Positions 6,097-57,230 of a DNA stretch of 64,000 nucleotides are shown here, one piece after another (the stretch's first letter is position 1; every line of letters starts with the position of its first letter). The notes under the pieces are model-generated. The model searched no databases. It had not been told where the DNA came from and worked only from the letters and a program-made list of their open reading frames with translations. Position numbers and translations under genes: made by a program. The stretch lies in contig JAGSHN010000031.1 in assembly GCA_029855935.1 (NCBI GenBank), positions 1-64,000 on the forward strand, given 5' to 3'. This DNA is from Candidatus Thorarchaeota archaeon (lineage in GTDB: Archaea; Asgardarchaeota; Thorarchaeia; Thorarchaeales; Thorarchaeaceae).

Positions 6097-6537
6097 CAGG
6101 AGAGCTCACCACCTGTGCCAGCAGCATCTCAGATCCATACGATTCGGATGCTGACCATGCGATCCGACGGTCGTCAGGTACGACACCGAGGAGGTTTCCA
6201 CGGTGTCAGTCGTACAGACAGACACTGCCTGCGTAAAGTAGTTGGTGGTGGACAGAGATTCGTCACGACAGACCTACACGCTGGTACAGGCCCTACGACA
6301 TCCTCGCAGCATACTTATCTGTGCTCTTGTGTCTGAGATGACCGGTCGATGAAGCAGCTACCCCTGTCCGAGCATCAGCGATGACGAACCAAGAGCCGGC
6401 TGAGACCGCCCATACCCAATCGTGTTCTCCGCTCAAGCCATAGCTGGTCTATGACCGTTATGACTATCTCAAGTGTAGACACCGAGAGCAGGGGAGGGCC
6501 GAGACCTACACAAGTGGGACACAAAACAGGGCTGCGA

Positions 6538-6753
6538 CTACCGATTCTTCTTCTGCTGCTTCGCCCCTCGATAACGGTGATCGCAGGTCATTGAGAAAAT
6601 CAGTTGGTCCCTCTTCATCTCCACCGAGTATGTGTTGCCTGCTGTGTCCTCCACGAAAACGGGTTCGCCTCTCATGAACTTTCGGATTGTGCGACGCAGT
6701 CTCCAAGAGGTGATCCGATGGGACGACGTGCAGGTCTCGGCCATGTCTATCAT
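6538..6753 (-). CDS. Small hypothetical protein
   Basis: ORF with an upstream TATA-like element (ctatatat on - strand, ~6829-6836). Confidence 0.4.
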   Translation of the reverse strand: MIDMAETCTSSHRITSWRLRRTIRKFMRGEPVFVEDTAGNTYSVEMKRDQLIFSMTCDHRYRGAKQQKKNR

Positions 6754-6967
6754 CTCCGTTGGACGACGGTGTCAACCGACATCGCAACGGCAAATACGAC
6801 AACTATAGGAAACTTCCACTTGTCGTAATATATAGGGGCTGAAACAGACGATGGCTTAGAAATGGCCTGTAGAGGCCGTTTTCTGGCCCCTCTGAGGGAC
6901 GGACTCACGATGCTGGGTTGGATCTCGACAAACTCGTAAAATCATCAAAATCTGGCCGCAGTCTTAC

Positions 6968-7198
6968 TTAACAATCGGCCACGTCACTTTGAGGCCCACC
7001 ACGACCAGAAGTAGAGACATCAAGCACCCGCACGGAGAGTCGCCCCCTCAGTCGTGACACCACGACGGACTCGTCGCCGAACCTAAGGACGATCTCATCG
7101 CCCTCTCCGAGAAACTTGTCTGCACCGCTCGCAATGAGACTGTCTATGATGTTCTGTAGGCGGACACCGTACTCTTGTTCCGTGTCCAAGCACTTCAC
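6968..7198 (-). CDS. Small hypothetical protein
   Basis: Plausible globular sequence; no motif. Confidence 0.45.
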   Translation of the reverse strand: MKCLDTEQEYGVRLQNIIDSLIASGADKFLGEGDEIVLRFGDESVVVSRLRGRLSVRVLDVSTSGRGGPQSDVADC

Positions 7199-7344
7199 CT
7201 TCCATCGCGTAGCCTTGACTTGCGAGGTCTAGGGGGCTTGTGTAGGAGGGGGTGACCCATACGGTCAATATTAATCCTACGGGCACAGCGGCCGTCCATC
7301 TCTCGAAAGGCGACTGCTCCGTTGCCCGTGATGATGACGAGTGC

Positions 7345-8823
7345 TCAAGGGTTGTATGCAAACGGATGACGCGCAGAGAACCGTCTTGCCACGATCTCGT
7401 CGGTCGGCTGTCGGCCCTCAATGGCCCGCCGTAGTGCGAATCTGGTCGCCCTGAAGTTGTTGATGTGGACACGCTTCTCATTGCGGGCCTTCGGATGGAC
7501 GAAGACATTGACAGCAATGACTATGTCGTTGAGCAACTCCTCAGGCAGGATGCGGTCCGTGACGGTCCTGCGGATAGCGTCCTCAACCGCCTTCTGAGCA
7601 ACTTCGTAGACGAGATGCTTGTGGAACTCCGTAGTTATCGTCACGGTAGGGGCGAACACCGTCACTGGCTCCAAGTCACGTATCACATCCGACGGATGAA
7701 ATCCCTCGACTATCTTCCCCGCGTCCTCCAATGCCGCGGACATAGGACCATCCTTCAGACCCATCACGAGGTCAACGTGAGCCACCTCAAGCCCAGCACC
7801 TGCAAGGGCCTCTCCATGTAGGAGCATCAGGTCGGTCACCTCGTCTGGGACCATGCCCACCGCTTTCGGATAGGCCTCCGCAACAATCTGACGTTCGCCC
7901 ATTCGGAACGTGACCGTACCACGTGGTATCAGCTGGAGGTCCTCGAGACACGTTCTCAACTCATCAATGTCCTCGTAGCGGAGGACTCCGCCCTCAAGAA
8001 GCGGTGCCCGTGCCCTCCCGACGGGTATGCCCATCATGTTCAGTGCCGCCTTGACCGCGACACCACCTCCGCGATTGACTATGATCCGAACGGCCTTCTG
8101 GATGCTGCGCTGAATCAGAAAGGCCTCCTTGAGGTCTCCGCGTGCCAGAGCACTCTCCATCTTCAGGTACCGCGCTGGAAAGACGTTCGCGCTGGCTAGC
8201 ACAGCACCATCGCAGCCCGAGGCCAACGCAGGCAACGCGACCTCATCGTGACCCACGACTACCTGGAAGTTCTCGGGACGACGTACGAGTATCGTCGTGA
8301 GATTGACGAGGTCACCGCTGGAGTCCTTCATCCCGACAATGCCGTCGATCTCACGTAGACCGTCAATCACCGTCCAGTGGAGCGGCACCCCGGTCACCTG
8401 CGGGATGTTGTAGATGAATATCGGGATATCGCTGCTATTGGCAATCTTCTGGAAGTGTTCGTATATCTCCTTGGTAGATGGTCGGAGGAAGTACGGTGTG
8501 ACGACAAGTGCGGCAGAGGCGCCGAACTCTGCAGCGCGGCGGACCAGCTTGATCGCGTCATTGGTGTAGGCGGCACCGCAGCCAGCCAGAACAGGGACTT
8601 TGCCCTTGGCGGCCTCACACGCTATTCGAATGGCCTCGATACGCTCATTCAGATGCATATTTGTGAACTCGCCAGTCGTGCCGCAGGGAACGACACCCGT
8701 GGCGCCCGCACTGATGACATAGTCTATGAGACCGCGATACTGCTTCTCATTGACTCCCTCTTCATCGAAGGGGGTCACGAGCGCAGGATACACACCCTTG
8801 AACCGGAAGTCTTGTTCGGTCAT
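7345..8823 (-). CDS. DapA/DHDPS-family aldolase fused to a C-terminal formaldehyde-activating enzyme (Fae) domain
   Basis: GTTGE, YNIP and Schiff-base GMKDSSG. C-terminal GEALAGAGLEVAHVDL...VFVHPKA...N..AT..ALRRA resembles Fae. Confidence 0.85.
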   Translation of the reverse strand: MTEQDFRFKGVYPALVTPFDEEGVNEKQYRGLIDYVISAGATGVVPCGTTGEFTNMHLNERIEAIRIACEAAKGKVPVLAGCGAAYTNDAIKLVRRAAEFGASAALVVTPYFLRPSTKEIYEHFQKIANSSDIPIFIYNIPQVTGVPLHWTVIDGLREIDGIVGMKDSSGDLVNLTTILVRRPENFQVVVGHDEVALPALASGCDGAVLASANVFPARYLKMESALARGDLKEAFLIQRSIQKAVRIIVNRGGGVAVKAALNMMGIPVGRARAPLLEGGVLRYEDIDELRTCLEDLQLIPRGTVTFRMGERQIVAEAYPKAVGMVPDEVTDLMLLHGEALAGAGLEVAHVDLVMGLKDGPMSAALEDAGKIVEGFHPSDVIRDLEPVTVFAPTVTITTEFHKHLVYEVAQKAVEDAIRRTVTDRILPEELLNDIVIAVNVFVHPKARNEKRVHINNFRATRFALRRAIEGRQPTDEIVARRFSARHPFAYNP

Positions 8824-8830
8824 CTTGGCC

Positions 8831-10228
8831 TCACCCCCATATCTGAGCAAGCGCGGCACCGACCGCCTCTTGCGCTGCTGCCACGACGACCCGCCTGTCC
8901 CTCGTATTCAGGTCGACATCAAGGGCCATGATCAGGACTCCGGAGGAGAGGTCCTCAGCAGGTATCCGCCCCTCGGCAATGCGACTGGCGACTGCTCGCG
9001 CCGCGCCCGACTGTACAGGACCATAGAAGAGTGATGCCTGCCTCAACGACGTTATCCTCCTTGTAGGGACCATGATACTCGATGGTCTGACGGGGAGGTT
9101 CGGCTCTAGAATGACTGTCAACGCCTCGTGGCCCACCTTTGCACGCGTGAGAAGTCGAACAAAGGCTCTTCCCAGTGGACTGGCCTTCTTGTTGAATGCA
9201 ACAGTGGCGGCGACCGTCCCGTTGGCGGCCCGACCCACTCGTGCCCCTTCAAGATAGTCCGGCCCGAGTCCAAACTCGGTGAAGACGGTGCTGATGTCGT
9301 GCTGCTGTACGGGCTCGTGCGAGAGCGACTCGATGAGGCCCAGCTTCTCGAGCTCCATTCGAATCTCATCCTTGACCTCGGGCGTCAGTGTGCCACCGGA
9401 GTCGAGAGGCATACGAGAACGACCGGCCTTGATACCCATCATCTTGAGGGCTGCCTTCACAGGCGGTGCGCCGCCATTGCGCGTTATGAGGCGAGCAAGC
9501 GTCTGGACAGAGTGCTGAAGATCCATCGCACCCTGAAAGTCGCCCTCCCGTACCTTCTTCATTATCTCAAGCCAGATGTGGGGAATGACGTTCCCTGACG
9601 CCAGAATGGCGGCCTGTGCTCCGGCAGCGATGGCAGATAGAAAACACTCGTCGTGACCAATGAGCACAGGCAGCTTGCCCCTCAGTTTCTGAATCAGCTC
9701 AAGAGTGGCAGGGATGTTACCGCTGCTGTCCTTTATGGCCACAATGTTGTCAATCTCAGCAAGGTCCTCAACCACGCCGGGCGGGATCGAGCCCAGAGTG
9801 CACTGGGGGATGTTGTAGAGGATTATCGGGATGTCACACTTGTGAGCAATCGTCGAATAGTACTCGTAGTATCCCTTCGCCGATGGCCGCAGATAGTACG
9901 GGGAGATGATCAGAGCGGCATCGCAACCAATGTCCTGAGCGAAGCGGGTGAGCTCAATGGTGGCCCCTGTGCTAGTCTGGCCTGTCCCTGCCACAACAGG
10001 GACGCGCCCGTCCGCAAACTCTACAGCAAGACGGAGTAGCTTCTTGCGCTCCTCAGTACGCATGTAGACGAACTCGCCAGTGGTGCCACCGGGGACTATT
10101 CCCGTCGCACCCTTGCCAATCACGTAATCTATCAACTGTCTCAGGCCGTCCTCCTGCAGATCGCCATCCTTGTTGAACGGCGTCACCAATGCAGGCATAA
10201 CACCCTCAGGAACAAATGGTTTGACCAT
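8831..10228 (-). CDS. DapA/DHDPS-family aldolase fused to a degenerate Fae-like domain
   Basis: GTTGE, YNIP, AIKDSSG. C-terminal GHEALTVILEPNLPVRPSSIMVP...FYGPVQSGAARAV resembles the Fae core. Confidence 0.8.
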   Translation of the reverse strand: MVKPFVPEGVMPALVTPFNKDGDLQEDGLRQLIDYVIGKGATGIVPGGTTGEFVYMRTEERKKLLRLAVEFADGRVPVVAGTGQTSTGATIELTRFAQDIGCDAALIISPYYLRPSAKGYYEYYSTIAHKCDIPIILYNIPQCTLGSIPPGVVEDLAEIDNIVAIKDSSGNIPATLELIQKLRGKLPVLIGHDECFLSAIAAGAQAAILASGNVIPHIWLEIMKKVREGDFQGAMDLQHSVQTLARLITRNGGAPPVKAALKMMGIKAGRSRMPLDSGGTLTPEVKDEIRMELEKLGLIESLSHEPVQQHDISTVFTEFGLGPDYLEGARVGRAANGTVAATVAFNKKASPLGRAFVRLLTRAKVGHEALTVILEPNLPVRPSSIMVPTRRITSLRQASLFYGPVQSGAARAVASRIAEGRIPAEDLSSGVLIMALDVDLNTRDRRVVVAAAQEAVGAALAQIWG

Positions 10229-10630: not shown

Positions 10631-13084
10631 CTAGGCCAGACCCGCTCCTCTCGCGGCATAGTGGAGCGACTCGTTGAAGAACTTCCCAATCAGGGATGCG
10701 ATTCTCGGCCCCACAATGTTGTTGATCTCGCCGGGAAGAAGCTGACGAACATTCGTCTTTGAGGTGAGTCGACCCTGTCGTTTCAGAGCAGAGATCTCGC
10801 GCTGCACCATCGAACGTGCCTTGTCCCACGAGAGAGGCTCCGCTGTGGCGCCTATGAGCCCGGTCTTGATGTCGGTTATCGCCCGCATGACGAACACGGA
10901 CAGATTGTCAAAGTCGTCAGCCTGAGCCATCGAGACTCTGCCGTGGTCGGGACAGACGCCATCCTCTGGCGTTGCACCGCACTCCTTGCACACAGGCCGT
11001 CCGCGATTCGACTGGATGTAGTAGGCGAGGAGATTACGGCATTTCATATCGTCATTCGGACCCCACTCGAGGCCCTTTGTACCGACCCGACCTATGACCC
11101 TGAAGACCGTGTGTGCCTTCGTGTAGATGAAGTTCAGGACGTCGAGCTGCTTCCTCCGCTTGCGAATCATCTCCTGTTCGCGCGCCTTGGCCTCAATGGC
11201 CATCTCCTCCCTCTTGAGCCTCTTGTGACGCTCTCTGATGAGGAACCTGTGCATCACGTCATACGCAATCGCATAGTTGTCAAAGTCGAGCTCAGAGAGG
11301 TTTAGTGGAGCCTCAACTATACCCTCAAAGACCGGACTTGGTGTTGACTCGAGCTCATCCCGCGCTGCAGTGAAGCTCTTGTTTGAGAGTCGAGCGTGGA
11401 GCCACGCGCACACTGTCTGTGCATCCATCTCTGGATACACGCACTTCATCTCGTAGATGCGCTCGGACAGAAGGTCAATCAGGATCTCCTCGCGAAGGTA
11501 CTGGAGGTCCATCTCTGTCTCCTCGTAGATGCTCTTTAGCACGGCACGGATGCGCAGCATGTCCTGCTTGTTTCGGATGTAGGTCTCTACAACACGAGCA
11601 ACACTGGTCATCAGGGATGTCATCAGATGCCATACCATGTCCAGCCTCAGCGAGCGTATGGCCTCCGACTGAATGCGTTTCGCGGCCATCTCCGCCGATG
11701 AGGCTGCGGTCACGCCCTTCAGCGCTCCACTCTGGACCTGTTCACGGAGGTCGAGTAGCCTCGCGAGTTCGTCAGGGGAGGGTAGACGCACTTTCTTTCG
11801 CAGTTCGTCATAGACTTGCCGTTCGATGCCAATCAGTGAGGACGGATCGCGTGTGAACAATGTGATGTCAATCTTCTCTAGCTCCGAGGCGCGGAGACCG
11901 CGGGCACGCAGCATACCCTTGACCGGCCCGTTCAGTGCCTTCTCAATCTTCTCCACAGTACGGAGGGACCGCTCAATCTGCTCGACCTCATCAGCTGACA
12001 TCTCTGATGTCTCTGTGGCCTCGTCGGCCGCAGGCGTCTCGACGGCCTCCGAGAGGGCGTCAGTAATGGTCTCCGGGTCACGCAGATGCTTCGTTGCAAG
12101 AACCGATCGCACCTCATCCTCGGGTACGCCTATCAGCTCACTGATGACTTCAAAGAGGAGGGACGAGTTCTGCTGGAGGGTCGGGGCAAAGGTGTCGATC
12201 ACGCGTGCCTCAAGCTCTCTTTCAAGCTCATCGAAGGTCAGTGGCGTGTCGATGTTCTGATCAATTGAGTCGAGGAAGGCCAGGCGAAGCTGACATGCTA
12301 GGCGGAGTGCCTCAGGACTGCAGCCGCCACGTCGGACTCTCTTCCAGACCGCAGAGACAATCTCCTGAATCACTTGGTCGCTCAGGTCTGACCTTCGAAG
12401 AGGTTTCTCAAGGTACCTGAGCTGTCCCAGTAGTCGTACTATCCCGCGCTTCAGCACCGTTATCTCCACAGCCTCAGTTTCGTGCTCACGCAGCAGCTCG
12501 TCACGGAGCGTGAGGGCACTCTCCTTGAGACCCGATGCCTTGACATACAGGTCTCTGCGGTCCTCATCGCCCCACCCAGTGATCTCATTGACCAAGTCCA
12601 CCGACGCGTTGGGCGAATAGTCGTCCGGTATCTTGTCCAAGAGGTCGCAGACCATCTTCAGGAGCTCTGCAGGCGCCTCCTCATCGTCCAACTTGTCTGC
12701 GAGGTCATCACAGATCTCAAGGAAGAACTCGTTGACGAGCCGCATCACATCGGCATCCTCTCTGAAGGAGTTGCCCAGGAGCTGGCGTATCTCAAGCTCA
12801 AGCTGGCGTCGCTCTTCTCGCTCAATGGCTGAGAGGTCCTCGGATGAGACTGAGGAGTCCTCGTGTGAGAAGAGACGCAGACCTTGGTAGTTATAGATGT
12901 AGAATCCTGCGAAGAAGGAGAGAAGATCTTCAAGGGGCCGTCTGTCGCCCGCTATAGAGGCGAGTATCTGGCGGTCGCGGGTACTCCGCATGTGCGTCAC
13001 TAGGGCCTCACGCAGCAGAATCTCCTTTCCAGCCTCCTTCATCTGATGGGTCTTCAACAACCACGAACTAGACACGATTCTCAC
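10631..13084 (-). CDS. Large helical hypothetical protein with C-terminal CxxC..C..H zinc-binding motif
   Basis: 817-aa ORF with coiled-coil segments and CKECG...CPDH; overlaps the upstream gene by 4 bp. Confidence 0.75.
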   Translation of the reverse strand: MRIVSSSWLLKTHQMKEAGKEILLREALVTHMRSTRDRQILASIAGDRRPLEDLLSFFAGFYIYNYQGLRLFSHEDSSVSSEDLSAIEREERRQLELEIRQLLGNSFREDADVMRLVNEFFLEICDDLADKLDDEEAPAELLKMVCDLLDKIPDDYSPNASVDLVNEITGWGDEDRRDLYVKASGLKESALTLRDELLREHETEAVEITVLKRGIVRLLGQLRYLEKPLRRSDLSDQVIQEIVSAVWKRVRRGGCSPEALRLACQLRLAFLDSIDQNIDTPLTFDELERELEARVIDTFAPTLQQNSSLLFEVISELIGVPEDEVRSVLATKHLRDPETITDALSEAVETPAADEATETSEMSADEVEQIERSLRTVEKIEKALNGPVKGMLRARGLRASELEKIDITLFTRDPSSLIGIERQVYDELRKKVRLPSPDELARLLDLREQVQSGALKGVTAASSAEMAAKRIQSEAIRSLRLDMVWHLMTSLMTSVARVVETYIRNKQDMLRIRAVLKSIYEETEMDLQYLREEILIDLLSERIYEMKCVYPEMDAQTVCAWLHARLSNKSFTAARDELESTPSPVFEGIVEAPLNLSELDFDNYAIAYDVMHRFLIRERHKRLKREEMAIEAKAREQEMIRKRRKQLDVLNFIYTKAHTVFRVIGRVGTKGLEWGPNDDMKCRNLLAYYIQSNRGRPVCKECGATPEDGVCPDHGRVSMAQADDFDNLSVFVMRAITDIKTGLIGATAEPLSWDKARSMVQREISALKRQGRLTSKTNVRQLLPGEINNIVGPRIASLIGKFFNESLHYAARGAGLA

Positions 13085-15681
13085 CCCACGACAGTCTGAC
13101 CGATGGTCACCACGAGTTCTCCCTTCTCAGGGTGATGTTCAAACGTCACAAGATGTATTCTCGAGCGCTCACCAGTGTCCCGCAGAAAGGCCCTAGTCGT
13201 GAGTGGGAACAGACGTCCCAGAGACCGAATCGTGTAGTCCAGCAGATACTCATAGAACTGCTCTCCAAGCGATACTGATGTCTGATCCGCCATACTGGCC
13301 GCGTCCTGTGCCATTCTTCTCAGCCGCTCGGCGAAGACCTCCTCCATAGACTCCTGCTTTCTGTCCATCTCCGTAATGTGCTCTGTCAGGAGATCCCGAA
13401 GCTCCGTGTAGTTCTGTAGCTCCTCTGACGGCTGGGGCTTTGGCGGCAGAGGCTTCGGTGTTCCAGGCGGGTACTCAGCCTCTATCCGCGCAAGACGGCT
13501 CTGTAGGGGCTCTGGAGGCTGAGGTCGGGGCAACGAGTCGGTCGGCTGGCCGGTCGCGTGGAGTCTCCTTAGCTCAGCCTCATACTGCTCAACTTGAGCC
13601 TTGTATGCTGCCATCTCGCGGTCGTAGGCCTGACGAGCAAGGTCGGAGAGTTCCTGCCGCTTCTCATTCCGTTCGATGATTGGTGCATTCTCGGCCTCTA
13701 TCCGGGCACACTCCTCCTCCCACGCACGAACCTGGTCATCGTACTCGCGCTGTCGTGACTCGGCCTCAAACGACACACGCACTACAATGGATGCGGCGCG
13801 TCCCACCGTCCCGGCGCGTTCGTGGACGACATTCTGAAAGACGAGCAGCCTCTGGGAGAGAGGCATCGGGTCATCGATGTTCGCCTCAAAGAGCCGAATC
13901 CACCTCCGGGCCTCCTCACGCCATTCATCAGGTTTGTCGGGGATGCTGTCCACCCTCGCGTAGAGTTCGCCAACAAGGTCCTTGCCCTCTCGAACAAGGT
14001 CTATCACCTCTGACACGAACGGGCGGGAGAGCAGTGTCTGGGCTATATCAGGGACGATCTCGTTCACTAGGGTGGAGAGCGAGTCGAGCATACTGGTGAG
14101 TACCTGACCCCGCTCATTCAGGGAGCCACCCTCGCCATATCTCGACTCAATCTCTGTACGCGCAATCTCAGCCACATCGTCGAACTCGATGAGATCCCAC
14201 ATGTCAATCCTGCCAAAGACCTCAATCATCTCGTCGGCAATGAGGGAGATCAGCTCTTCGAAGGACTGTTGTGCAGCACCTTCGAAGGCCTTCCTATCAA
14301 AGACTGCATTGAGCTGTGCATACAGCTCCGAGTAGAACTTCTCGAACAGGAGCTTGGTGATGGCATCTGTATCGGGGCCGACCATCTGGTCCCGGAACTC
14401 GTGGAGTGCCGCAACAAACGCTTCGCGTGCTGCAGATACGAGGGTGTACTGGCGCAGCTGGTCTGCAAAGTAGGACGCAACTCTCTCGCAGTAGAGGAGG
14501 AAGTGAGCGACACGGCTCCTCATCTGCCAAGCGCGGAACTCAAGCCCGCGGGGAAATCCTCGCGAGACTGACTTGAAGAGGTCTTCCACAAGAGCCTGAG
14601 CAAACTTCAGCTCGATGTCCCGGAGCCCCGCTTGTGAGAGAGCCTCCAACAATGCCCTCTTGTGACCCTCCATATCTGACACAAGGCCGGACCTCACGTG
14701 AGCGTCAGCCACCAGCCGGAGTGCCCCGATCACCCGCTTCATCATATCTGCAAATTCAGACGTCTTGGCCCTCAGCTCATTCACCTTGGATGCCACCAAC
14801 CGGTCGGTACCAAGGTAGTCCGTGAGATATGCAATGGCAGTGCGGACAATCTCGGTTTCCTCAATCGAGTACGCATACTGGTTCAGCTCGCCGAGCAGAG
14901 CACGGCCCAGTTCGGGAAGCTCCTCTGTGAGAGTCCGGAGTCCCGCAGGTGTGAGGACACGATGTTTGAACTGGTCAATGAGGCGGTCTTCTGGCGCATC
15001 GGGAGAGAGGAACTCAAGTTCCTTGCGCCGGATGACCTTTACACCAGGAGGGAGGGTCGTGAAGTCGTCACAATACTCAAGGACCACCTTGACCTCTGGA
15101 TCTGTCTGCTCAGGACGTATCTGAAGCGAGTCCCACGTTCTCTGAAAGCGTCGATCAAGGAGGTCAACGAACAGCACCTTGTTCAGTCGGTCACTGAATC
15201 TACGCAGAACATCGAGCCCCTGTGTTTCATAGTCAAGACGGTTGGCCTCGACAGCTGCCTCGATATCGCCCATCTTCTTTGTGAGCCGCTCGATATACTC
15301 GTCCATCTTGAAGGGATCGATTATCCCCCGCTCCCAGCCCAGAATGCAGGCGTGGGAGGCAAGGCCATAGGTGAGTCCCCCTCCGGCCACGAGTAGCTGT
15401 TCCGGCACCATCTCTAGGCGTGCGGAGTGCTCAAGGTCCCACTCAACAGAGAGAAGTTCAAGGTCTTCGGCATCGTACAGTGAGTCGCGTACCGAGAAGA
15501 TCAGTGGCCCCACTCCCATAGCCACCGCGTCAGCATTCTGCTCCATCATGCTGCCCGAGCCGACGGCGCTCCCCAGCGGATGACCTCGTCTTGTTGTGAG
15601 ACCGAGCACGGAGACCGAGGCCATCCTTATCGCCTCGATGGTACTGGGCGTGAGAGGTTGTGCTTTCCTAGACGCGCTCAT
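13081..15681 (-). CDS. Large helical/coiled-coil hypothetical protein with Pro-rich segment
   Basis: ~866-aa ORF; PRPQPPEP and PPGTPKPLPPKPQP tracts inside a coiled coil. Confidence 0.75.
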   Translation of the reverse strand: MSASRKAQPLTPSTIEAIRMASVSVLGLTTRRGHPLGSAVGSGSMMEQNADAVAMGVGPLIFSVRDSLYDAEDLELLSVEWDLEHSARLEMVPEQLLVAGGGLTYGLASHACILGWERGIIDPFKMDEYIERLTKKMGDIEAAVEANRLDYETQGLDVLRRFSDRLNKVLFVDLLDRRFQRTWDSLQIRPEQTDPEVKVVLEYCDDFTTLPPGVKVIRRKELEFLSPDAPEDRLIDQFKHRVLTPAGLRTLTEELPELGRALLGELNQYAYSIEETEIVRTAIAYLTDYLGTDRLVASKVNELRAKTSEFADMMKRVIGALRLVADAHVRSGLVSDMEGHKRALLEALSQAGLRDIELKFAQALVEDLFKSVSRGFPRGLEFRAWQMRSRVAHFLLYCERVASYFADQLRQYTLVSAAREAFVAALHEFRDQMVGPDTDAITKLLFEKFYSELYAQLNAVFDRKAFEGAAQQSFEELISLIADEMIEVFGRIDMWDLIEFDDVAEIARTEIESRYGEGGSLNERGQVLTSMLDSLSTLVNEIVPDIAQTLLSRPFVSEVIDLVREGKDLVGELYARVDSIPDKPDEWREEARRWIRLFEANIDDPMPLSQRLLVFQNVVHERAGTVGRAASIVVRVSFEAESRQREYDDQVRAWEEECARIEAENAPIIERNEKRQELSDLARQAYDREMAAYKAQVEQYEAELRRLHATGQPTDSLPRPQPPEPLQSRLARIEAEYPPGTPKPLPPKPQPSEELQNYTELRDLLTEHITEMDRKQESMEEVFAERLRRMAQDAASMADQTSVSLGEQFYEYLLDYTIRSLGRLFPLTTRAFLRDTGERSRIHLVTFEHHPEKGELVVTIGQTVVG

Positions 15682-15815
15682 ATGATGTCCTTCCTGCACT
15701 CAAGACAGCCCGGAGAACGGTGAGATCCGAGACCGTAGTAGTGCTCGTTGTTCACTACTCGATGACTGAACATTCTCTTGAATGTTGCTGGTTCCACCTG
15801 GGTTGCAACCCCGAC

Positions 15816-55942: not shown

Positions 55943-56066
55943 GACAACTGCCCCTTGGTCTTTGACAGATGGTGCGGTGGAAGCTTCTTGTAATAAATCA
56001 GTCGAATCACGTGCTCGCTGGCCGAACCAGTGCAATACAAATAGAGGGGAAGGAACGGGTGTAGCG

Positions 56067-57230
56067 GTGTTTCAGGATTTGTTCTCGGCGCTCCATCATC
56101 TCAAGTGTCCAAACTGTGGCAAGGAGTACTCGGCCGACACGGTTGTAGGTACTTGTGACTGCGGCTCGCCCCTGTTTGTCATATACCATATGCGTGTTGT
56201 AGAGGAGGCCATGCGGGTCGATCTCTTCCCCACAGGGGTGAACTCGCTATGGCGATACTCGATGCTGCTACCACTGAGGTCACCACAGTATGTGATCACT
56301 CTGGGCGAGGGTTGGACTCCACTCATTCAGGCACCGCGTCTGTCGGAGCACTACGGACTGAGGATGCTGCGAGTCAAGTGCGAGAGCCAGAACCCCACCG
56401 GCTCGTTCAAGGATCGCGGACTCAGTGTGACGGTCTCAAGACACGTAGAACTCGGCTGTGACAAGTTCGCCCTCCCGACAGCCGGCAATGCTGGGGTCGC
56501 ACTGAGCGCGTACTGCGCGCGGGCGGGCGTGAGATGCAGAGTCTATATGCCAGAGGACACTCCGGACAGGTTTGTCAAGGAGTGCGAGAGATACGGGGCA
56601 GAGGTATTCAGAGTCGAGGGGACAATCAGCGAGTGCAGAGCAGCAATGATAGCGGAGTCGCCGGACTTTGTCGACCTGTCGACGACAAGAGAACCGTATC
56701 GCGTCGAGGGCAAGAAGACAATCGGCTTCGAGATAGCTGAGCAACTGGAGTGGAATATGCCCGATGTCATAGTCTGTCCGACAGGCGGCGGTACTGCGCT
56801 CCTCGGGATCTGGAAGGCCATAGGCGAGCTCCGCGCGCTCGGCCTGATGGACAAGCACGATGGTCCTCGTCTTGTTGCTGCTCAGAGCGAGCACTGCGCC
56901 CCTGTCGTCAGAGCAGTGGAGAGAGGTGACTCGCAGGTGGAAACCTGGGAGGGGCCCGAGACCGCAGCGTTGGGCCTCAGGGTCCCCAGTCCCTTTGCGA
57001 AGAAGCTGATTCCCAAGGCGATACGTCAGACAAAGGGCACCGCAGTGGCGGTCGCAGAGAACGACATGTGGGAGGCACAGAGACTCGCTGCAAAGCTCGA
57101 AGGGTTGGACATCGGACCTGAGGCCGCCGTCGGCCTCGCGGGAATAGGTAACCTTGTTGAGGCCGGCGAGATAGATCCAGACGAAGAAGTGGTGCTGCTC
57201 AACACCGGAGGGTCTGCAAGGTATGGGTAG
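56067..57230 (+). CDS. thrC: Threonine synthase
   Basis: [38 protein letters not shown]. Confidence 0.88.

Follow-up and report, generated by a model that had tools for sequence, protein, structure and literature searches.

A tandem pair of aldolase-Fae fusion genes in Thorarchaeota, predicted to encode a heteromeric pyruvate aldolase coupled to tetrahydromethanopterin

The first 64,000 nucleotides (nt) of contig JAGSHN010000031.1 from a Candidatus Thorarchaeota archaeon (GenBank assembly GCA_029855935.1, forward strand; hereafter the window) contain two adjacent genes, A and B, each of which joins an aldolase domain of the DHDPS family to a domain of the Fae family. Every database name found for homologues of these genes is DapA (4-hydroxy-tetrahydrodipicolinate synthase), and the locus raises the question of what reaction such a pair carries out. 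The observation of two adjacent aldolase-Fae fusion genes is confirmed. They probably encode a heteromeric aldolase which acts on pyruvate and the C1 unit of tetrahydromethanopterin (H4MPT). The full proposal is that an obligate heteromer interconverts pyruvate plus methylene-H4MPT and 4-hydroxy-2-oxobutanoate (HOB), and that it feeds homoserine and threonine synthesis in this organism; the chances of this are about even.

The genes and their domains are listed below, with lengths in amino acids (aa) and with R138 and Y107 denoting positions of E. coli DapA.

8831..10228, minus strand: gene B (upstream), 465 aa, a DHDPS-family aldolase with a truncated Fae-like domain; identified as an open reading frame (ORF) with Pfam and NCBIfam matches
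9398..10207, minus strand: aldolase domain of B, which keeps Lys166, Tyr138, Thr49 and Tyr112 and has Cys143 in place of R138
8846..9202, minus strand: Fae-like domain of B, in which the central GH..L..EPNLP.RP and YGP.Q..A block survives, the N-terminal GEAL/His/Asp motif is gone and roughly the final 20 residues are missing
8824..8833, minus strand: gene junction as read from the sequence, with the TGA stop of B at 8833-8831, a 7-nt spacer and then the ATG of A
7345..8823, minus strand: gene A (downstream), 492 aa from the ATG at 8823, a DHDPS-family aldolase with a full-length, centrally degenerate Fae domain
7993..8802, minus strand: aldolase domain of A, which keeps Lys175, Tyr147 and the ancestral loop after position 138 and has Val152 for R138 and Phe121 for Y107
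7360..7815, minus strand: Fae domain of A, with GEAL, the AHVDL His/Asp motif, NVFVHP and the C-terminal RHPF all retained, the PNL loop shortened by a 4-residue deletion and GPAQ lost

The ORF of gene A extends to a GTG at 8859 (7345-8859, 504 aa). Its homologues are 491-492 aa long and start four residues ahead of a conserved FRFKG; therefore, the ATG at 8823 is taken as the true start. The residue numbers of A (Lys175, Tyr147, Val152, Phe121) are those of database protein P0001, which has 501 aa and starts 9 residues before this ATG. A purine-rich stretch, GGGGGTGAGG, spans the end of gene B ahead of the start of gene A, and together with the 7-nt spacing it is consistent with co-translation of the two genes. 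The 120 orthologues of B share 61-77% identity and are mostly named Thorarchaeota. The host assembly (2.97 Mb, 32 contigs) is 97.3% complete, and A and B are its sole two DHDPS genes and its sole two Fae genes.

Both aldolase domains match the Pfam DHDPS family (E-values of 1.5e-71 for A and 5.4e-78 for B). The dapA equivalog TIGR00674 is passed narrowly, with 219 bits for A and 230 bits for B (cut-off 206), and this accounts for the DapA label being universal. Residue equivalences were taken from an alignment of A and B to E. coli DapA (the annotated K-12 record), and their conservation from an alignment of 108 A-type, 120 B-type and 108 single-copy (S-type) relatives. In B, Lys166, Tyr138, Thr49 and Tyr112 correspond to K161, Y133, T44 and Y107. 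In A, Lys175 and Tyr147 correspond to K161 and Y133, and Val152 and Phe121 occupy the positions of R138 and Y107. The sequence-only reading of this locus held that both genes keep the DHDPS catalytic motifs. This is correct for the Schiff-base Lys161 and for Tyr133 and Thr44, which are present in at least 94% of the A-, B- and S-type sequences, and incorrect for Arg138 and for Tyr107 of the A-type. Arg138 of DapA binds the carboxylate of aspartate semialdehyde. It is replaced by Val in 93% of A-type, by Cys in 96% of B-type and by Cys in 61% of S-type sequences, so that Arg is the majority residue in 0/3 groups. Position 107 is Phe in 99% of the A-type sequences, and Tyr in 92% of the B-type and 100% of the S-type.

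The loop which follows position 138 (139-145) shows the opposite asymmetry, with the ancestral T-G-V...W in A and an altered T-L-G...S in B. Tyr107 of E. coli DHDPS reaches across the tight dimer into the active site of the partner. If this role holds in the pair, an A:B dimer would have one complete site, located in A and finished by the Tyr of B, and the site in B would be doubly impaired.

The lysine pathway partners were also searched for in the host genome. There is no Asd match and no DapB_C match, and DapB_N gives only a 24.9-bit match. Across the family of the window, Asd is found in 13 of 57 genomes, compared with 66 of 70 for the A/B pair. The M20 deacylase adjoining the pair is a generic ArgE/DapE-family member. 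A and B are not plain DHDPS/DapA enzymes, the outcome that the sequence-only reading had set against itself: Arg138 is gone, and neither DapB nor Asd accompanies the pair.

The C-terminal domains are both Fae, as proposed from the letters alone, and profile searches matched DHDPS and Fae in each protein. Against the Pfam Fae family (PF08714, cut-off 27 bits), A scores 101 bits (E-value 7.8e-29) over positions 2-158 of the 159-position profile, and B scores 83 bits (E-value 3.2e-23) over positions 17-135 only. The NCBIfam Fae profile (TIGR03126) gives 110.1 bits for A and 74.1 bits for B, both under its equivalog-domain cut-off of 118.05. Fae catalysis relies on His and Asp, and H4MPT is bound at the subunit interface. 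Motifs were compared by alignment to the solved Fae of M. extorquens (1Y5Y), and the reference consisted of 59 positions that are conserved in the single-copy fusions as well as in eight canonical Asgard Fae domains. Among the A-type and B-type orthologues, 24 of these positions are retained in A only, 14 in B only, 10 in both and 11 in neither. A thus keeps 34/59 and B 24/59, and jointly they keep 48/59.

The positions kept only in A comprise GEAL, Ala-His-x-Asp-Leu, VT, VFxHP and the C-terminal His-Pro; those kept only in B comprise Gly-His, Leu, Pro-Asn-Leu, Pro, Gly-Pro and Ala. The full motif set (GEAL..AH.DL; GH..PNLP.KP and GPAQ; VF.HP and HPF) is found in neither chain alone. The loss is clearly segmental, with a 4-residue deletion of the PNL loop in A and the absence of roughly the final 20 residues in B. 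The complementary motifs first noticed in this one pair hold in the 1Y5Y alignment and across the orthologues.

The complex was modeled with two chains, the Fae domain of A and the Fae domain of B, using family alignments as input. The ipSAE score is 0.82 (0.80-0.85 over three runs) versus 0.17 for the best control, and this mark is reached by 58 of 80 solved complexes and by 2 of 110 mismatched pairs. The runs have at least 83% of contacts in common, and the partner pLDDT is at least 86. The model always places the N- and C-terminal face of A against the central face of B. On the A side, the interface includes 11 of the 24 A-only residues (background 39/154), and on the B side 8 of the 14 B-only residues (background 39/139). 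This pattern agrees with the prediction for a single composite site. An interface between the two domains is supported by this model, and stoichiometry and chemistry are outside its reach. The heteromer suggested by the sequence-only reading thus gains support from the complementary losses and from a complex model that passes its controls.

The pair appears to have an intact single-copy ancestor. S-type relatives are single fusions of about 495 aa with a canonical Fae domain (195-205 bits, Pfam), found in other Asgard families and in Bathyarchaeia; the intact form with a 205-bit Fae occurs in Atabeyarchaeia, Loki-type genomes and Bathyarchaeia. In a survey of 301 Asgard genomes of at least 80% completeness from 30 families, the fusion is present in 10 families, and the tandem pair is present in the 66/70 genomes of the window's family and in single genomes of two other families. 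The survey found no Fae in Thorarchaeota besides the fusion genes. In a quick maximum-likelihood tree, all upstream B-type copies (Thorarchaeota, genomes G007 and G051, and a metagenome contig) form one clade with an SH-aLRT of 100. The A-type copies are unresolved, and the A and B clades of Thorarchaeota are on long branches. The single B-type clade implies one old duplication, from which the pair arose; the gene that was duplicated was an aldolase-Fae fusion of the single-copy kind, which is widespread in Bathyarchaeia and other Asgard lineages.

The fusion is most economically read, we infer, as an enzyme of pyruvate and formaldehyde chemistry that acts on a 4-hydroxy-2-oxo acid, and an HOB aldolase or hydroxymethyltransferase activity is suggested by the combination of the two domains, the missing Arg138, the pathway gap described below and the gene neighborhoods. 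The mechanism proposed here builds on the observed domains, residue patterns, phyletic patterns and neighborhoods and on a modeled hetero-interface; its substrates, direction, aminotransferase and kinase are deductions. A and B would form an obligate hetero-oligomer in which labor is divided in both domains. The aldolase part would have one complete class I (Schiff-base lysine) pyruvate site, which lies in A and to which Tyr112 of B contributes across the tight-dimer interface. The Fae part would have one complete site between the N- and C-terminal motifs of A (GEAL, His, Asp, RHPF) and the central motifs of B (PNLP loop, GPxQ). A hydroxymethyl unit could then move between methylene-H4MPT and C3 of pyruvate by way of enzyme-held formaldehyde, according to pyruvate + methylene-H4MPT + H2O <-> HOB + H4MPT. 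The net direction is most likely synthetic, in which case HOB would be transaminated to homoserine, activated and converted by threonine synthase. Such a route would stand in for the missing route through aspartate semialdehyde and homoserine dehydrogenase (Hom).

The sequence-only reading advised a check for H4MPT genes, and Mch was found with 391 bits; therefore, H4MPT is in use. Hom was not found in the host genome, and the same search recovered it in 14 of 14 control genomes. Hps was also searched for in the host genome and was not found, and a formaldehyde trap for the reverse ribulose monophosphate pathway was rejected on that ground. The window itself contains a candidate downstream consumer, putatively linked to the pair and lying outside any operon with it.

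55962..57230, plus strand: threonine synthase (ThrC), NF006050 at 465 bits versus a cut-off of 303

The phyletic pattern was compared in families that carry the fusion, as follows.

f1 (the family of the window): fusion 66/70, Hom 3/70, ThrC (NF006050) 68/70
f12: fusion 11/14, Hom 0/14, ThrC 11/14
f13: fusion 3/3, Hom 0/3, ThrC 2/3
f25: fusion 8/9, Hom 0/9, ThrC 5/9

Hom is present in sixteen families without the fusion.

A gene for a 426-aa protein gives an independent line of evidence through a change of neighborhood. Among the 61 non-Thorarchaeota genomes with both coordinates, about 58 have it upstream of the single-copy fusion at a distance of 19-55 nt. In families f5, f21 and f23, which are without the fusion, it is the first gene of a cluster that also holds a class I aminotransferase and Hom (29 genomes by coordinates, five loci read). 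The common node of the two contexts is homoserine or HOB, its 2-oxo acid. The protein is very conserved, with about 70% identity between Thorarchaeota and Loki-type genomes. It has no match in Pfam, NCBIfam, the PDB sequence search or the Atlas, and its confidently predicted structure (pLDDT 89) is a TIM barrel that carries a helical N-domain and has only generic TIM-barrel neighbors in the fold search. In the host it is on a separate contig from the A/B pair.

C2:28789-30051 (= L017:2781-4142), minus strand: the 426-aa gene of the host
L009:9754-11034, L032:5358-6638 and L033:1804-3087: its relatives at other loci

More broadly, Thorarchaeota, many Bathyarchaeia and other Asgard archaea may make homoserine and threonine from pyruvate and a Wood-Ljungdahl C1 unit and not from aspartate, with the Thorarchaeota enzyme as a heteromer of decayed duplicates and the 426-aa TIM barrel as a further step of the pathway. 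This generalization is tentative, and it is somewhat more likely to fail than to hold.

Several results weigh against the proposed heteromer and its synthetic role. The negative association between the Fae losses of A and B is modest (odds ratio 0.33, p = 0.06). The pass of the Fae-Fae model may partly reflect the solved Fae homopentamer, and a strict alternation of A and B is incompatible with the pentameric state of canonical Fae. A metabolic operon partner was looked for in the A/B neighborhood of Thorarchaeota and none was seen; over the Thorarchaeota and Bathyarchaeia fusion loci together there is none apart from two unknown genes. In family f9, a hand count gives 21 genomes with the fusion and Hom, 37 with the fusion only, 24 with Hom only and 10 with neither; the genomes with both show that fusion and Hom do not strictly exclude one another. 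ThrC is kept in families f10 and f15, which have no fusion and, in most genomes, no Hom. Amino-acid auxotrophy is common in Asgard archaea, and a pathway that is absent may therefore have no substitute. The homoserine kinase ThrB is also absent from the host genome, in which TIGR02535 gives 302 bits versus a cut-off of 446. ThrB is missing from 285 of the 301 Asgard genomes sampled; therefore, this gap is not specific to the host, and another kinase must exist in the phylum anyway. An orphan GHMP kinase and an ApgM-like protein are nominal candidates for that step. The orphan kinase (372 aa, C28:127480-128592, L018:4481-5599) is the only unassigned GHMP kinase found; it is below every NCBIfam cut-off, and its best matches are mevalonate kinase and galactokinase.

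The catabolic direction, which the sequence-only reading preferred, is unlikely although it accounts for much of the same evidence. The heteromer would cleave HOB (or another 4-hydroxy-2-oxo acid with a terminal CH2OH) to pyruvate and formaldehyde, and the formaldehyde would be trapped on H4MPT and enter the Wood-Ljungdahl pathway, as with Fae-Hps. Fae is classically a formaldehyde-capturing enzyme, the enzyme-level evidence fits both directions, and a route from homoserine through HOB to pyruvate and C1 is possible in the 21 f9 genomes with Hom and the fusion. Fae-Hps has been discussed as a means of making methylene-H4MPT (PMC7495880), and Asgard archaea and Bathyarchaeia have been described as amino-acid degraders (PMC11291895). 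However, without Hom, Asd and Hps the host genome has no recognizable source of HOB or homoserine, and it retains threonine synthase, which needs a homoserine derivative; this combination points to synthesis of the C4 acid over its cleavage. The fusion is also kept throughout most of the window's family though Hom is present in only 3/70 of its genomes.

The Fae-like modules could instead be non-catalytic, serving as a pterin-binding, regulatory or oligomerization scaffold for an ordinary 2-keto-3-deoxy-acid aldolase that acts on a non-C1 aldehyde. The scores below the NCBIfam cut-off of 118 bits (110 and 74), the 11/59 conserved positions lost in both copies and the long branches of the two Thorarchaeota clades would be expected of such a scaffold. 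It is nevertheless a distinctly unlikely explanation, because the surviving residues are strongly conserved in each paralogue, are enriched at a single predicted interface and jointly rebuild most of the canonical motifs. Furthermore, Fae is fully canonical in the ancestral single-copy form (205 bits), and the window's family has no other Fae.

The same hydroxymethyl transfer might use another 2-oxo acid, for example 2-oxobutanoate or, in a class I counterpart of the PanB reaction, 2-oxoisovalerate to give ketopantoate. The replacement of Arg138 by small hydrophobic residues leaves the acceptor/donor pocket undefined and so gives room for this. Characterized DHDPS-family enzymes form their enamine from pyruvate, however, and the other neighbors of the TIM-barrel gene, Hom and the aminotransferase, point to a straight-chain C4 acid. 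The genome has a normal PanB (392 bits), pantoate kinase and phosphopantothenate synthetase, so there is no pantoate gap, and the pair as a PanB replacement was rejected. Another 2-oxo acid is thus very unlikely. An OYE ene-reductase downstream of the fusion in locus L009, which hinted at a 2-oxobutanoate route, was dropped as it is not conserved in L010, L011 and L032. Finally, A and B as true DapA isozymes of lysine biosynthesis, as annotated, have a negligible chance of being correct: TIGR00674 and the database names speak for them, and the missing Arg138, the residue that binds aspartate semialdehyde, the absence of Asd and DapB, the family counts of Asd versus the pair and a generic M20 neighbor all speak against them.

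Other features were seen near the pair and its relatives. On the minus strand of the window, 10631-13084 and 13081-15699 are overlapping large genes (817 and 872 aa) without a significant Pfam family. The order of these two genes, CutA1 and the aldolase-Fae pair is preserved in a second Thorarchaeota genome (L006, where the large genes encode 814 and 867 aa). Downstream of gene A, 6097-7344 is a region of 1.25 kb without a credible ORF above 100 aa; the matching position of L006 has a 72-aa ORF and a 1037-aa TPR gene, and a 76-aa ORF of the window (6968-7198, minus strand) may match the 72-aa ORF.

At other fusion loci, a 303-315-aa protein without a Pfam match occurs at L013:6015-6926, L015:6017-6964, L007:5421-6359 and the start of L030. 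In G007 and two Bathyarchaeia loci it immediately precedes the fusion, and in two Atabeyarchaeia loci it is nearby. Its Atlas features fall near U32-peptidase-like clusters (score 0.98), and it has no tblastn match in the host genome. In the Loki-type contig G118:C44, a threonine synthase (L032:2599-3777; NF006050, 552 bits) is convergent to the fusion (L032:3851-5338) at a distance of 74 nt, and the 426-aa gene is directly before that fusion.

In the host genome, the 426-aa gene is beside a ThrC-like gene, which was discounted as support. This paralogue is a threonine-synthase-like PALP protein (contig C2, L017:4892-6379, plus strand) whose C-terminal domain is of the PadR DNA-binding type, and its gene adjoins an ECF transporter gene, which encodes a riboflavin-type S-component (L017:4259-4825, minus strand). 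On these two grounds it is probably a regulator.

If the proposed heteromer and its synthetic role are correct, thousands of Asgard and Bathyarchaeia entries for 4-hydroxy-tetrahydrodipicolinate synthase are misnamed, and metabolic reconstructions of these sediment archaea assign the lysine pathway wrongly. The H4MPT Wood-Ljungdahl pathway would be joined directly to C4 amino-acid synthesis through HOB. The Thorarchaeota pair would also be a clean case in which complementary losses, in two separate domains at once, have converted a homomer to an obligate heteromer. No paper on a DapA-Fae fusion was found in the literature. Added here are the asymmetry of the aldolase domains, the mapping of the interface and the observation that the TIM-barrel gene adjoins the fusion in some genomes and the aminotransferase-Hom cluster in others.

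Among known systems, the archaeal Fae-Hps fusion (NF009833) is similar in that Fae is fused to a C-C lyase which releases or consumes formaldehyde, so that an aldol-type reaction is tied to H4MPT without free formaldehyde. Fae-Hps is found in the same phylum as frames of about 400 aa. Its lyase is Hps, of the orotidine monophosphate (OMP)-decarboxylase fold, whereas the lyase of A and B is a DHDPS-family Schiff-base aldolase with pyruvate as the donor. In A and B, Fae is C-terminal, and the enzyme is divided between two paralogous fusions whose degenerate sites complement each other. The NF009833 profile gives 89 bits for A and 65 bits for B against a cut-off of 274, and only its Fae part is matched.

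The class I aldolases of the DHDPS/NAL family (DapA, NanA, KDG aldolase, YagE/YjhH, HOGA1) share with A and B the fold, Lys161 and the Tyr133/Thr44 proton relay. A and B differ from them by the lack of Arg138, the extra Fae domain and Phe107 in one paralogue, and the proposed aldehyde is formaldehyde delivered by a pterin. The net reaction proposed for A and B is of the same type as that of ketopantoate hydroxymethyltransferase (PanB), a transfer of hydroxymethyl from a methylene-pterin to C3 of a 2-oxo acid. PanB, however, is an unrelated metal-dependent enzyme made of a single polypeptide, its substrate is 2-oxoisovalerate, and the host has its own copy.

The closest engineered parallel is the homoserine cycle, in which pyruvate and formaldehyde are converted to HOB, homoserine and then threonine with the promiscuous E. 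coli RhmA (He et al. 2020, reviewed in PMC8879981). HOB is called a non-native metabolite in that review and has so far been used only in synthetic methylotrophy (PMC8879981). The RhmA step is a laboratory design which relies on a class II aldolase and free formaldehyde, whereas A and B would be a natural, dedicated and carrier-coupled class I enzyme. The pair would then be a natural counterpart of the engineered cycle, and a dedicated natural catalyst for the HOB step would be of interest to synthetic methylotrophy.

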